Shown: positions 2,521 to 5,830 of the stretch, piece by piece | Layout: each line of letters starts with the position of its first letter | Position numbering within the stretch: the first letter of the stretch is position 1 | Source: Dictyostelium discoideum | Taxonomy: Eukaryota | Direction: 5' to 3' | Assembly: GCA_000004695.1 (NCBI GenBank) | Contig: CH709160.1 | Location: 1-8,346 of the forward strand | DNA: 8,346 bases | The notes under the pieces: model-generated | The model's input: only the letters and a program-made list of their open reading frames with translations | The model's database searches: none | What the model was told of the DNA's origin: nothing | Translations under genes and position numbers: made by a program

Positions 2521-2558
2521 CACAGCGAAGAAAAAACCATCTTCAAAGCAAATTTAAA
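2521..2558 (+). repeat. Element A left terminal inverted repeat (about 38 bp)
   Basis: See the alignment to the reverse complement of 3267-3304. The terminus CACAGCGAAGAAAA resembles the En/Spm terminus CACTACAAGAAAA (recalled from memory). Confidence 0.65.
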
Positions 2559-2588
2559 TTTAATTTAAAGCGAATTTAAAGTCCTGAA

Positions 2589-2699
2589 TTAAAGCAATTT
2601 TTAAGGTAATTTTAAAGGGAAATTTTTAAGGTTACTTTAAAATCACCTTAAAAATTACCATTAAAATTACCTTTAAAATTACCTTTTTAATTGCTTTAA
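2589..2699. repeat. Left-subterminal long inverted repeat / hairpin. It has 30-bp arms matching at 27 of 30 positions (2589-2618 versus 2670-2699), separated by about 50 bp carrying 12-mer motifs in both orientations.
   Basis: TTAAAGCAATTTTTAAGGTAATTTTAAAGG versus the reverse complement of CCTTTAAAATTACCTTTTTAATTGCTTTAA. Confidence 0.6.
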
Positions 2700-2735
2700 A
2701 AGCGAGGTCCTGAGTTCGAAGCCGTTATTTAACGG

Positions 2736-2829
2736 ATAAATTTTTTTAATTTTTTTTTTTAATTTTTCAAAAATTACCAAAAGGGATTCGATCCCCCGAA
2801 CCTCTATCAAGGGGTAGTCTCATCAACCA
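2736..2829. other. 94-bp segment present in element A but absent from copy C (an insertion in A or a deletion in C). It contains a T/A-rich run plus a GC-rich patch with a B-box-like motif on the minus strand (GGATCGAATCC, 10 of 11 matches to GGTTCGANTCC).
   Basis: A reads ...TTAACGG[94 bp]TTACACCATTTG..., and C reads ...TTAACGGTTACACCATTTG.... The minus strand reads ...CCTTGATAGAGGTTCGGGGGATCGAATCCCTTTTGGTAATTTTTGAAAAATTAAAAAAAAAAAATT. Confidence 0.6.
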
Positions 2830-3025
2830 TTACACCATTTGATTGCTTTGATGAAAATTTAAAAATAATAGAATATTTTATCCCCATTTTTTTGATCTAA
2901 AATTAGATCTTTTTTATTAAAAACCTTAAATTTATATTTAAAGTAAATTTAAATTCACTTTAAATCTACTTTAAATCCTATTTAAAATTAATTTAAAATA
3001 AATTTTAAAGGTATTTTTAAATATC

Positions 3026-3121
3026 TTAAAAATTACCTTAAAAATTACCTTAAAAATTACCTTAAAAATCACCTTTAAAATTACCTTAAAAATCACCTTT
3101 AAAATTACCTTTAAAATCACC
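3026..3121 (+). repeat. Tandem array of 8 x 12-bp units (TTAAAAATTACC / TTAAAAATCACC / TTTAAAATTACC) in the right subterminal region of element A. There are 2 further units at 3183-3206 and 4 direct units at 2641-2690.
   Basis: Direct reading of the sequence. The corresponding array in copy C (5276-5323) has only 4 units. Confidence 0.85.
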
Positions 3122-3266
3122 TTTAAAATAAATTTTTAAGCAATTTTTAAGCAAATTTTAAAGGCATTTTTAAATATCTTAAAAAATTACCTTAAAAATT
3201 ACCTTAAAAATGAATTATTAAACGCGGCTTTAAATTCAATTTAAATTCAATTTAAATCAACTTTGC

Positions 3267-3304
3267 TTTAAATTTGCTTTAAAGGTGCATTTTTCTTTGC
3301 TGTG
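3267..3304 (-). repeat. Element A right terminal inverted repeat (about 38 bp)
   Basis: The reverse complement CACAGCAAAGAAAAATGCACCTTTAAAGCAAATTTAAA matches the first 29 nt of the terminus at 5492 exactly. Confidence 0.65.
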
Positions 3305-3763
3305 GAGTTACTCAGCACCTGTATTCATTGCCACAAGCAAATTTGGGAAAGGGAAAGGGTATTATTTGATTACAGAGGAGTTAATAAACAAACAGAAGAC
3401 TTTGCATTGGACATACTCAAATCCACAAAGAACTGCAAATACTTCTCAGTAGTTGATGCTAAGTCAGGTTTCCATCTGTTACAAGTTAAAGAAGAACACA
3501 TAAATTTCACAGCCTTCTCATTCAAAGGTAAACTTTATCAATTCCGTAGAGAACCTTTCGGTATGAAGAACAGCCCTGCCTACTTTAACAAATGGATACA
3601 ATCGATCATTGAAGAGTTCAAGGACTTCGCGAGAGCATACGTAGACGACATCATTATCTTCTCAAAGACGTTAGATGACCATATTACTCACGTGAACACG
3701 GTTCAAGGATACTGTCAATTTTTATGGTCATGTGATACCAAGATGGTTCCAAACCAGTTATAG
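3305..3763 (+). pseudogene. pol copy 2: RT palm segment with YVDD (3638-3649); ORF-track 3302..3763 (alternative GTG start overlapping the element terminus)
   Basis: Motifs KYFSVVDAKSGFHLLQV, REPFGMKNSPAYF, YVDDIIIFSKT. The RT is N-terminally truncated exactly at the element boundary (3304/3305). Confidence 0.75.
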
Positions 3764-4192
3764 ATAAGGTAGAAGCAATTTACAACCTACCAATTACCAC
3801 TACTGTCACAGAAATAAGATCTTTTCTTGGAAGTTGTAACTACTTGAGGAGGTTCATTTCAAACTATTCCGAACTCACAGCCAGATTAACAGCTCTCACA
3901 GGTACTAGAACAACAAGAATCACAATCACAGACGAGAAATAAGAAGACATCAAACGGTTAAAGCAAGCAATCACTTCAGCCCGGTTCTAGCTAAACCCGA
4001 CTTCACGAAATCATTTGATGTTTATATCGATGCAAGTGACATAGGTTCATGTTGCGTTATCATGCAAGATGTTGGTAATGGTAACATTAGGCCGATTCTT
4101 TACGAAAGTTGTCGATTCAACAAGTTCCAAAGAAATTCCTCGACAACCGATAGAGAGTTTTAATAATTACATTTAAAAGCACCTTATTAATA

Positions 4193-4271
4193 CACAGCGA
4201 AGAAAAATCCACCTTTAAAGCAAATTTAAATTTAATTTAAAGCGAATTTAAAGTCCTGAATTAAAGCAATT
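4193..4271 (+). mobile_element. Element copy B: a 78-bp left-end-only fragment of the same TIR element
   Basis: CACAGCGAAGAAAAATCCACCTTTAAAGCAAATTTAAATTTAATTTAAAGCGAATTTAAAGTCCTGAATTAAAGCAATT is nearly identical to the first 78 bp of A and C. Similarity stops abruptly at 4271. Confidence 0.7.
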
Positions 4272-4328
4272 AAAATACACATATATATTATTTTTTAATA
4301 ATAAAACTTATTTTTAAAGGAAAAACTT

Positions 4329-4604
4329 TTATTGGGAAGAATTAGAAGCATTTAAGTAAAGTGCAGAATGATGAAATTGAAAAGCTTCTTGTGCATCTTT
4401 TCTCATTTTAGCCCTAGAGTCAAATTTTCTACTAAAATCATTTAATATTGTAATTAATCTCTTTATTAAAGGAACTGAATCTGGGTACCAGTGTTTCTCT
4501 TCACCTGTTTCACAAGAGTCAACAAACTCTTTTATTAAAATATTATTTTGATAATTTTCATAATTAATGTGGCTGAGAAAAAGAGAAAGTAAAGCAGGGG
4601 AAAA
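4329..4604 (-). CDS. Terminal coding exon (91 codons plus stop) of the same unidentified host gene
   Basis: FSPALLSLFLSHINYENYQNNILIKEFVDSCETGEEKHWYPDSVPLIKRLITILNDFSRKFDSRAKMRKDAQEAFQFHHSALYLNASNSSQ* with the stop TAA at 4329-4331 (minus). The sequence is not low-complexity and I do not recognise the family. Confidence 0.45.
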   Translation of the reverse strand, partial: FSPALLSLFLSHINYENYQNNILIKEFVDSCETGEEKHWYPDSVPLIKRLITILNDFSRKFDSRAKMRKDAQEAFQFHHSALYLNASNSSQ

Positions 4605-4612
4605 CTATATTT

Positions 4613-4656
<44 letters not shown>

Positions 4657-4721
4657 ATTTAATTATTTTGTAAATTTTGATTATATTAATTTATACACAC
4701 AATTTCATTACCAAAAAATAC
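4605..4721 (-). other. Predicted 117-nt intron (minus strand GTATTT...ATAG), about 90% A+T, containing a 39-nt poly(T) on the coding strand
   Basis: The intron has a canonical GT/AG, and both exons are phase 0. Its size and composition are typical of Dictyostelium introns. The flanking exons only form a continuous ORF with this donor/acceptor pair. Confidence 0.4.
4616..4654 (+). repeat. Homopolymer A39 (T39 on the minus strand, inside the predicted intron)
   Basis: Direct reading of the sequence. Confidence 0.95.
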
Positions 4722-4865
4722 TTGGCTATCGGAAATATAAACTTTAAGATTGTGGTTTTTTTCACCTTTTGAATAAATATTTTGACTGGTACAATCTTCG
4801 TTACTACCACCAGCTTGTTTAATTATTCCAGTAATAAAGTAATTTGAATAGGTTTCAAACCTATT
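4722..4865 (-). CDS. Upstream (5'-truncated) coding exon of an unidentified host gene. The reading frame begins at the boundary with element copy C. Product unknown.
   Basis: The minus-strand frame is open for 48 codons (NRFETYSNYFITGIIKQAGGSNEDCTSQNIYSKGEKNHNLKVYISDSQ) and ends at a GTATTT donor. It is bounded upstream by a stop codon formed with the element terminus, and there is no ATG. Confidence 0.4.
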
Positions 4866-4866
4866 T

Positions 4867-5452
4867 CACAGCGAAGAAAAATCCACCTTTAAAGCAAATT
4901 TAAATTTAATTTAAAGCGAATTTATAGTCCTAAATTAAAGCAATTTCTAAGGTAATTTTAAAGGTAATTTTTAAGGTTACTTTATAAGCACCTTAAAAAT
5001 TACTTTTAAAATTACCTTAAAAATTAGCTTTTCAATCGCTTTAAAAGCGAGGTCCTGAGTTCGAAGCCGTTATTTAACGGTTACACCATTTGATTGCTTT
5101 GATGAAAATTTAAAAATGATAGAATATTTTATCCCATTTTTTTGATCTAAAATTAGATGTTTTTTATTAAAAACCTTAAATTTATATTTAAAGTAAATTT
5201 AAATTCACTTTAAATCTACTTTAAATCCTATTTAAAATTATTTTAAAATAAATTTTAAAGGCATTTTAAAATATCTTAAAAATTACCTTAAAAATCACCT
5301 TTATAATTACCTTAAAAATTACCTTTAAAATTGCTTAAAAATTTAATTTAAAGCAAATTTTAAAGGAATTTTTTAATATCTTAAAAATTACCTTAAAAAT
5401 GAATTTTTTAAACGCTGCTTTAAATTCAATTTAAATCAAATTTAAATCAAAT
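4867..5452 (+). mobile_element. Element copy C: same TIR element family, about 90% identical to A. It has an intact left terminus but lacks the right terminus. It lacks the 94-bp segment 2736-2829 and has fewer 12-mer units.
   Basis: It is collinear with A from CACAGCGAAG through ...TTAAATTCAATTTAAATCAA. The core (5043-5270) is nearly identical to A 2698-3010. Similarity ends at about 5452, 40 bp before the next terminus. Confidence 0.7.
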
Positions 5453-5491
5453 TTTGTTGTAGGGAATTTTCCATAAAATTTCACTACAGTA

Positions 5492-5830
5492 CACAGCAAA
5501 GAAAAATGCACCTTTAAAGCCAATTTCAAGCAAATACAATTTAAATTTGCTTTAAATTGGCTTTAAATTTGCTTTTTAAAAAGGTAATTTTAAAGATATT
5601 TTTAAGGTCATTTAAAATTACATTAAAAATGACCTTTTAAATTTATTATAAAGCGGTTTTTAAATAATGTTTTAATCACTTTATAATAAATTTAAAAAAG
5701 TTATTTTTAATGTAATTTAAAATTACTTATCAATCCTTTTTTAAGCTTTTATTAATTATATTTTTAAAATACATTTTAAATGCATTTTAAATACATTTCA
5801 AATCAATTTTTACACTATTTATTTTAAATT
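5492..5830 (-). mobile_element. Element copy D: a divergent member or terminal region of the same family in inverted orientation, with the right-type terminus at 5492. It is possibly the 5' end of an autonomous copy that continues into the ORF at 6496.
   Basis: CACAGCAAAGAAAAATGCACCTTTAAAGC is identical over 29 nt to the reverse complement of A's right terminus. Downstream there is a variant motif, AAGGTCATTT, forming a perfect 10-bp inverted repeat (5604-5613 and 5627-5636), and further palindromes. The distal boundary is undefined. Confidence 0.5.

Follow-up and report, generated by a model that had tools for sequence, protein, structure and literature searches.

The 8,346-nucleotide stretch of Dictyostelium discoideum DNA analysed here (contig CH709160.1 of assembly GCA_000004695.1, positions 1 to 8,346; hereafter the window) is a patchwork of transposable elements inserted into one another, in which one family of DNA transposons is represented by a complete non-autonomous element of 784 bp (2521-3304, + strand; probably DDT-S), a 78-bp remnant of one element end (4193-4270, + strand), a short-element copy with one intact end (4867 to ~5455, + strand), a fragment of an autonomous copy (4157-4866, − strand) and the left 2.85 kb of another autonomous element (5492-8346, + strand; probably DDT-A), which continues past the window end and carries a transposase gene, ORF1. 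To follow these sequences beyond the window, we used five comparison loci, L001 to L005, fetched around relatives of the ORF1 protein from other D. discoideum assemblies, with L002 coming from D. cf. discoideum. Taking the evidence below together, we conclude, with a probability of about 0.85, that these sequences belong to a family of cut-and-paste, class II DNA transposons of CMC (CACTA, Mirage, Chapaev) type, most probably the DDT elements.

The copies are defined by a common terminus. The + strand has the 15-mer CACAGCRAAGAAAAA at 2521, 4193, 4867 and 5492, and the − strand has it at 3304, giving five matches where 0.20 were expected, a count reached by none of 200 shuffled sequences. An earlier reading of these letters without database searches (the sequence-only reading) had described this terminus together with the full 784-bp copy, the 78-bp stub and the copy at 4867, all of which were located where it had placed them. 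In the complete element, the left terminal inverted repeat (TIR), which we call the A end (CACAGCGAAGAAAAAACC...; 2521-2558, + strand), pairs with the right TIR, or B end (CACAGCAAAGAAAAATGCACC...; 3267-3304, − strand), at 33 of 38 positions, in agreement with the imperfect TIRs of about 38 bp proposed before, and a weaker similarity extends to 59 nt at 75%. The first 29 nt of the B end, the reverse complement of 3276-3304, are identical to the terminus at 5492, which had been taken for an inverted, divergent end and is instead a + strand terminus of this other end type, starting an autonomous copy. The left copy of the target-site duplication (TSD) of the complete element is TA (2519-2520) and the right copy is GA (3305-3306), a mismatch that represents one substitution in an old copy. 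No open reading frame (ORF) of at least 60 amino acids was found in 2521-3304, as expected of an element that had been called non-coding. Short (732-784 bp), lacking genes, bounded by TIRs and TSDs, present in near-identical copies and sharing its ends with an autonomous partner, this type of element has the features of a miniature inverted-repeat transposable element.

The interior of the short element is dominated by a 12-bp motif, TTAAAAATTACC, which occurs 38 times in the window with at most two mismatches, against 8.0 expected, on both strands and nearly always within elements, bearing out the direct and inverted arrangement noted from the letters alone. Inverted units form a subterminal palindrome at 2589-2699, for which arms of 30 bp had been claimed and arms of 37 nt at 86% complementarity were found; folded as DNA, this hairpin has a free energy of −29.5 kcal/mol (z = −7.3). 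A tandem array of the motif form CTTAAAAATTAC was seen earlier at 3026-3121 and was delimited by Tandem Repeats Finder at 3025-3129 on the + strand (period 12, 8.8 copies, 91% matches), with additional units at 3172-3211. Between the hairpin and the array lies a GC-richer central module (2700-2850) with two convergent tRNA-like B-box motifs, GAGTTCGAAGCC at 2712-2723 on the + strand and GGATCGAATCC at 2785-2795 on the − strand, each followed by a run of T. This module is the most conserved block of the family and is retained in the short element of D. cf. discoideum; it was also seen at L002 7230-7340, L002 8800-8950 and L004 6960-7100. Its minus strand resembles a degenerate tRNA (ATGGTGTAATGGTT... 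GGGGGATCGAATCCC); ARAGORN detected no tRNA in the window and four loci, and Rfam at E <= 1 returned no tRNA, only chance miRNA-like matches on AT-rich hairpins. By analogy with what has been reported for DDT-B, the B-box module may serve as a TFIIIC site and as a target of the retrotransposon TRE5-A. A segment of about 37 bp inside the A-end TIR (2541-2581 and 4887-4924 in the window) is exactly inverted relative to the subfamily found in L004 and L005 (L004 8861-8897), and this flip is bounded by palindromic arms, CTTTAAAG.

The left ends at 2521-2626, 4193-4298 and 4867-4972 are direct repeats of 78-92% identity, and the copies they begin have different fates. At 4193 only a 78-bp A-end remnant is left, about 75 bp of host sequence having been replaced or deleted and the remainder of the copy having gone. 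The host sequence is the reverse-oriented autonomous fragment at 4157-4866, which combines a subterminal region with the 3′ exons (within 4271-4866, − strand) of ORF2, the autonomous element's second gene, and which matches L005 18388-17777 at 88% and L001 13693-13329 at 87.6% in BLAST alignments. The copies had been said to abut unrelated sequence; their flanks do differ from one another, but the flank of the stub at 4193 is itself part of the family. A 39-nt poly(A) run at 4616-4654 may correspond, on the opposite strand, to the T-rich second intron of ORF2, judging from the L001 sequence. Within ORF2 of the same fragment sits the copy at 4867, whose A end is intact; the last ~45 bp including the right (B) terminus are missing, and an internal deletion of 94 bp relative to 2736-2829 has removed one B-box unit. 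The identical nesting site in ORF2 is occupied at L005 16856-17613, so that a composite of an autonomous copy with a short element at the same site was observed twice (window 4157-5455; L005 16481-18790). This recurrence reflects either a joint move of the whole composite or a duplication of the block.

The autonomous element at 5492-8346 is 98.5% identical to L005 12843-15693, 96% to L005 9016-11850 and 83% to L002 8978-11827. It opens with the B-end TIR and subterminal arrays of 11-12-bp motifs (5492-5830, + strand), continues through an A-rich stretch and reaches ORF1, whose first 617 codons (6496-8346, + strand) remain open to the window end. The comparison loci provided the longer, transposase-bearing copies whose existence the sequence-only reading had proposed to check. 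Complete autonomous copies were found at L001 9218-14251 (5034 bp, two genes, CACAGCAATGAAAA... at both ends), at L002 8979-14135 in D. cf. discoideum and at L005 12844-18790 with a nested short copy inside, the far ends matching in the latter two. The complete element measures about 5.0-5.2 kb and carries two genes between CACAG...CTGTG termini; its imperfect TIRs span about 30-40 bp, and its subterminal arrays are made of 11-12-bp motifs. ORF1 encodes a transposase of about 830 amino acids (814 in the L001 copy), and ORF2, a spliced gene with two introns, encodes a product of about 275 amino acids (L001 12676-13630), with no Pfam match and no recognisable domain. We found 33 relatives of ORF1, all from D. 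discoideum or D. cf. discoideum, which fall into two subfamilies about 50% identical to each other. No complete copy of the second, B-type subfamily was recovered from the loci, L003 and L004 carrying partial ones; the B-type left end at L004 6699 has three tandem B-box-like units 270-390 nt from the terminus.

To determine how these elements were inserted, we examined 13 complete copies, short and long, for target-site duplications. All 13 have CACAG...CTGTG ends, and 11 have a perfect 2-bp TSD directly outside them (TT, TT, GT, TA, TA, TA, TT, TG, AA, AA and GG), which settles at 2 bp the range of 2-4 bp that had been proposed; no TSD of 3 or 4 bp was found among the 13. With a chance of 0.102 per copy of a 2-bp match, the probability of at least 10 matches in 12 copies is 7e-9. 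The TSD has no fixed sequence. Direct evidence for insertion with a 2-bp duplication comes from an empty and an occupied site in L002, where the autonomous copy lies inside a short element that has an intact twin 2 kb away: the intact element (L002 6776-7474) reads ttttAAtag, while the occupied one reads ttttAA, then CACAG...CTGTG, then AAtag. In addition, about ten further short copies of 732-761 bp with differing flanks were present in the loci from other assemblies, answering the earlier call for a count of genomic copies. Those in L001, L004 and L005 are 80-91% identical to 2521-3304, and in alignment A8 those from L004 and L005 hardly differ from each other, which suggests recent amplification.

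These observations bear on two other accounts of the copies. One is that they arose by segmental duplication or recombination in a repeat-rich centromeric region, the shared ends being breakpoints of duplicated blocks; the region is indeed a mosaic of nested, rearranged repeats, the composite recurs in the window and in L005, and L002 contains inverted duplications. We nevertheless regard this origin as very improbable, given that 13 copies end at identical bases in unlike flanks, 11 of them with a 2-bp TSD, and that there are TIRs, an empty site and an encoded DDE transposase. The other account assigns the family to a different superfamily with 2-bp duplications, Tc1/mariner/pogo or PIF/ISL2EU-like, to which the length of the TSD and the TA sequence of 3 of the 11 perfect TSDs would conform. 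The remaining TSDs (TT, GT, TG, AA and GG) and the CAC...GTG termini do not fit such elements, and ORF1 gave no match to DDE_1, DDE_3 or DDE_Tnp_4 and matched CMC-type proteins and the RAG1 fold instead, leaving this account with almost no probability. Insertion as a mobile element bounded by CACAG...CTGTG is the explanation that we retain for the copies.

To place the transposase, we ran a profile of nine members of the ORF1 family against a set of 1.84 billion representative proteins, which yielded 72 matches at E <= 0.001. About 50 of these were weak (E 4e-8 to 1e-3) and lay outside the strongly matching family, and all of the weak matches cover profile positions ~230-720. Among 33 weak matches that were scanned, Transposase_21 (tnp2/En-Spm) was found in seven, DUF1258 in five and DUF4218 in three, with the remote matches P0066 and P0097 exceeding the Transposase_21 gathering score; the named remote matches are insect proteins, and DUF1258 is a nematode-specific Pfam family. 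Comparison of the ORF1 family with 13 remote proteins by hhalign gave a probability of 99.8% and an E value of 1.6e-29 over 469 columns. The CMC signature D..D..C(2)C..H(3)H..E of ORF1 aligned to invariant columns of the remote homologues and is conserved in an alignment of 37 sequences. In the full-length transposase P0003 the residues are D310 (LLRIFsDsM, opposite lnDG), D387 (MDIPE), C407-x2-C410, H487 (PDILHNILLG), E542, H612-x3-H616 (NFHLLLHYP) and E636 (WGAPKYTSAETFE). In the window copy, D318 (nt 7447-7449), D395 (7678-7680) and C415-x2-C418 (7738-7749) are present, preceded at the N-terminus by C2H2-type zinc-finger motifs, C-x2-C-x12-H-x3-H; the H(3)H motif, the catalytic E and a C-terminal domain described below fall beyond the window end.

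An AlphaFold2 model of ORF1 built from a deeper alignment reached a mean predicted local distance difference test (pLDDT) score of 70.9 and a predicted template modelling score of 0.67. A Foldseek search with this model returned RAG1 (1.3e-9), the amphioxus RAG1-like protein BbRAGL (7.6e-9) and the Helicoverpa transposase HzTransib (1.8e-5) as the best solved matches, over 500-600 columns, so the catalytic core of ORF1 is predicted to be an RNase-H-fold DDE domain of CMC/Transib/RAG1 type. No structure of a CACTA, Mirage or Chapaev transposase was among the Foldseek matches in the PDB, and RAG1 and Transib as nearest folds are therefore the result expected of a CMC enzyme. A published description of the CMC/CMCT clade gives the signature motif, CA..TG termini and 2-5-bp duplications as typical (PMC12730594). 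The present family combines the signature residues, CA...TG ends, a 2-bp TSD, a RAG1/Transib-like predicted fold and indirect homology to Transposase_21 and DUF4218, which supports its classification as CMC-type cut-and-paste DNA transposons; for its mechanism class, defined by CMC type, a RAG1-like core and 2-bp duplication, independent lines of evidence give good support.

Several observations weigh against this classification or limit its reach. Scanned directly against Pfam, ORF1 and its full-length relatives had no significant match, neither to Transposase_21 nor to another transposase family, and the whole-protein ORF1 profile had no match among PDB sequences. The link from ORF1 to CMC is a transitive one, running from profile to remote matches to Pfam, complemented by the profile-profile comparison. 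The fold is a prediction, and a first model from nine close relatives, with a pLDDT of 36, was discarded. The CMC-type label draws on profile homology, motifs and predicted fold, and would cover a position inside or beside CMC. Two of the 13 complete copies, the element at 2521-3304 among them, have a one-base mismatch in the TSD, and the near-identity of the L004 and L005 short copies is the sole sign that might point to present-day activity. The family departs from En/Spm (CACTA) in the strict sense, the termini being CACAGC rather than CACTA(C/G) and the TSD 2 bp rather than 3; with CACAG ends and a 2-bp TSD, it is therefore CMC-type and not En/Spm proper. With this qualification, the earlier proposal of a CACTA-like (CMC-superfamily) non-autonomous TIR transposon is supported, and all the tests suggested with it came out in its favour. 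Finally, as set out below, the name DDT was reached through published descriptors.

These points leave some room for an ORF1 lineage outside the EnSpm/Mirage/Chapaev clade, for which the missing direct Transposase_21 match, the identity of 14-21% between ORF1 and the remote matches, and the 2-bp TSDs also reported for PlavakaA (PMC12730594) could be cited. We consider this placement rather unlikely: the remote matches carry Transposase_21, DUF4218 and DUF1258, with no RAG1 or KDZ family listed among them, and the RAG1/Transib fold similarity is to be expected of a CMC enzyme where the PDB matches include no CMC structure. Mirage elements make 2-bp TSDs. Transib and RAG make 5-bp duplications and have heptamer-type, CACAGTG-like ends, and the TSD of the present family is 2 bp long. 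We therefore keep the CMC-type assignment for the family in what follows.

The DNA transposons on record for Dictyostelium go by the names Tdd, DDT and thug, and according to a 2017 review their transposases resemble no known transposase (PMC5633606). DDT elements make up about 20% of the centromeres, which are rich in DIRS and Skipper (PMC2665215), and the DDT-B consensus measures 5471 bp; in a DDT-B fragment rearranged to nt 428-1 plus 3291-1646, an A/B-box motif has been reported that TRE5-A targets (PMC9012585). The present family matches these descriptors, since the loci are DIRS/Skipper clusters and a B-box lies near the B-type end at L004 6699. The likeness extends to the species and to two autonomous subfamilies of ~5-5.5 kb with a short derivative, and by description no difference was detected; where the literature sees no relation between DDT transposases and those already known (PMC5633606), the present analysis groups them with CMC. 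By these descriptors, DDT-A is the most probable name for the autonomous copy, DDT-B for the ~50%-identical second subfamily and DDT-S for the short element. The sequence-only reading had found no place for the family among DDT, Tdd-4/5 and thug; its description of the element stands, but the family is very probably DDT, for which no mechanism is on record that would differ from the one proposed here. The DDT elements were reportedly named by Gloeckner et al. (2001).

The assignment has one competitor, in which the short elements are thug-S, thug-T or an unnamed family instead of DDT-S. The name was reached by descriptors rather than published consensus sequences, thug elements are also DNA transposons, at about 0.1% of the genome (PMC5633606), and the long hairpins of the short element recall thug-S, a reported source of hairpin-derived small RNAs. 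Set against this, thug-S is reported with an intron-bearing gene and the short element has no ORF; no small RNA in table 2 of PMC4894637 maps to the elements; and the ends held in common with a two-gene element of ~5 kb, the 50%-identical sister subfamily and the B-box near the end follow the descriptions of DDT-A and DDT-B, so that a thug identity seems distinctly unlikely and DDT remains our preferred name. A literature search turned up no paper that connects DDT with CACTA, Mirage or Chapaev and none reporting CMC in Amoebozoa, Repbase and Dfam classifications lying outside its range, and a search on DDB_G0294010 and DDB_G0267274 returned nothing; PMC4559204 lists no qPCR primers for DDT. 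As far as the accessible literature goes, the superfamily assignment of DDT may thus be a new one.

In the structure model, the full-length transposase ends in an all-beta domain of ~120 residues (~700-815 of P0003; pLDDT mostly 75-92), which gave consistent structural matches to BAH domains, several of which were solved with methylated histone tails or with the nucleosome. Pfam and PDB sequence searches of the same domain found no BAH, and the remote ORF1 homologues are without a C-terminal BAH-like domain. Such a fused domain could explain why DDT elements pile up in heterochromatic clusters, a thought that we offer as a lead rather than as a result. Precedents for a chromatin reader are the PHD finger of RAG2 and the chromodomains carried by the integrases of chromoviruses such as Dictyostelium Skipper. 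We tentatively propose, while rating the full proposal as somewhat less probable than its failure, that DDT is an amoebozoan lineage of the CMC/RAG1-like group in which a built-in chromatin reader of BAH fold directs insertion into heterochromatic, transposon-rich centromeric DNA.

In the mechanism that we envisage, the ORF1 DDE transposase would recognise the CACAG ends, cut there with its DDE core, excise the element and reinsert it with a 2-bp stagger. Because of the N-terminal zinc fingers and the precedent of TnpA in En/Spm, we suppose that ORF1 or ORF2 binds the subterminal 12-bp arrays, ORF2 being conceivably a TnpA-like accessory factor, which is a guess. The 784-bp element and the elements of ~760 bp keep the ends and the arrays and encode nothing, and must for this reason be mobilised in trans by ORF1. 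The BAH-like domain would then steer insertion into heterochromatic transposon clusters.

The remainder of the window belongs to other elements. A Skipper-like pol region of a long terminal repeat (LTR) retrotransposon occupies 1-1976 and is 97% identical to a gene in L004 encoding 1338 amino acids with reverse transcriptase (RT), RNase H and integrase. A second LTR-retrotransposon pol remnant, degenerate, RT-bearing and with many stops, extends over ~1977-2520 and 3305-4156 and had no match in the fetched loci L001-L005; the 784-bp element sits within this pol gene, whose RT reading frame resumes at 3302. A 36-bp scrap, TGTTGTAGGGAATTTTCC...CACTACAGTA (5456-5491), lies between the truncated short copy and the autonomous copy that follows, and resembles the fused LTR start and end seen at L001 15075-15100 and 15480-15510. 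In D. cf. discoideum, a pogo/Tigger-like DDE_1 gene is split and partly inverted-duplicated around DDT-like insertions (L002 7476-8700 and 14651-14900). The 22-nt 'miRNA-like_D4' (UCGAACUAGUCCAAUCUUUAAU; PMC4894637) maps exactly to L004 19984 on the − strand, in a transposon cluster outside the DDT-like elements.

If these assignments are correct, DDT, long catalogued in a major model organism and never classified, would gain a superfamily and a mechanism (DDE cut-and-paste with a 2-bp stagger and a RAG1-like core), and the CMC group would be extended to Amoebozoa. Many "hypothetical protein" gene models in the new D. discoideum assemblies (ACTFI* loci) are transposase and ORF2 genes of this transposon family. 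Targeting through the BAH-like domain, if real, would explain the accumulation of DDT in the DIRS/Skipper clusters of a gene-dense haploid genome, and would make the DDT transposase the DNA-transposon equivalent of a chromodomain integrase and, in a single protein, an analogue of RAG1 plus the RAG2 PHD finger. The domain thus makes a testable proposal for how a DNA transposon could stay at safe heterochromatic sites in a compact haploid genome.

Among known systems, En/Spm and its relatives offer the closest comparison at the ends. The TIR of maize En1 is CACTACAAGAAAA and that of Tpn1 from Ipomoea nil begins CACTACAAGAAAAATGCAC... (PMC3193017 table 2), and the resemblance to En/Spm noticed from the letters alone was confirmed by this entry. 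The family shares with both elements CAC... termini followed by AAGAAAA, its B end reading CACAGCAAAGAAAAATGCAC..., and with Tpn1 a 13-nt run, AAGAAAAATGCAC, in the B end (3290-3304 / 5492-5511), which could reflect conserved end recognition or chance in A-rich sequence. Like En/Spm, it has subterminal arrays of ~12-bp motifs in both orientations, two element-encoded proteins, abundant non-autonomous derivatives and a transposase homologous at the profile level to Transposase_21/DUF4218 proteins. By contrast, the two proteins come from two separate genes and not from the alternative splicing that yields TnpA and TnpD, ORF2 has no detectable similarity to TnpA, and the transposase ends in a BAH-like domain.

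With the animal CMC elements Mirage and Chapaev, the family shares a DDE core with C(2)C and H(3-4)H motifs, the remote matches including insect and DUF1258 proteins, at an identity that nevertheless stays within the low range given above. Chromovirus and Skipper integrases and the RAG2 PHD finger resemble the DDT transposase in having a reader module fused to, or partnered with, an integrase or transposase and in accumulation in heterochromatin, but here the module has a predicted BAH fold, is fused to a DNA transposase and has a function that we infer. RAG1, ProtoRAG and Transib are the nearest solved relatives of the predicted core, although sequence similarity to RAG1 and Transib is undetectable without profiles and the family has no RAG2-like partner. 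The order of the residues is the same and, by RAG1 numbering, the spacing is nearly identical, with 20 and 23 residues from the second D to the two cysteines of C(2)C and 20 residues from H(3)H to the catalytic E.

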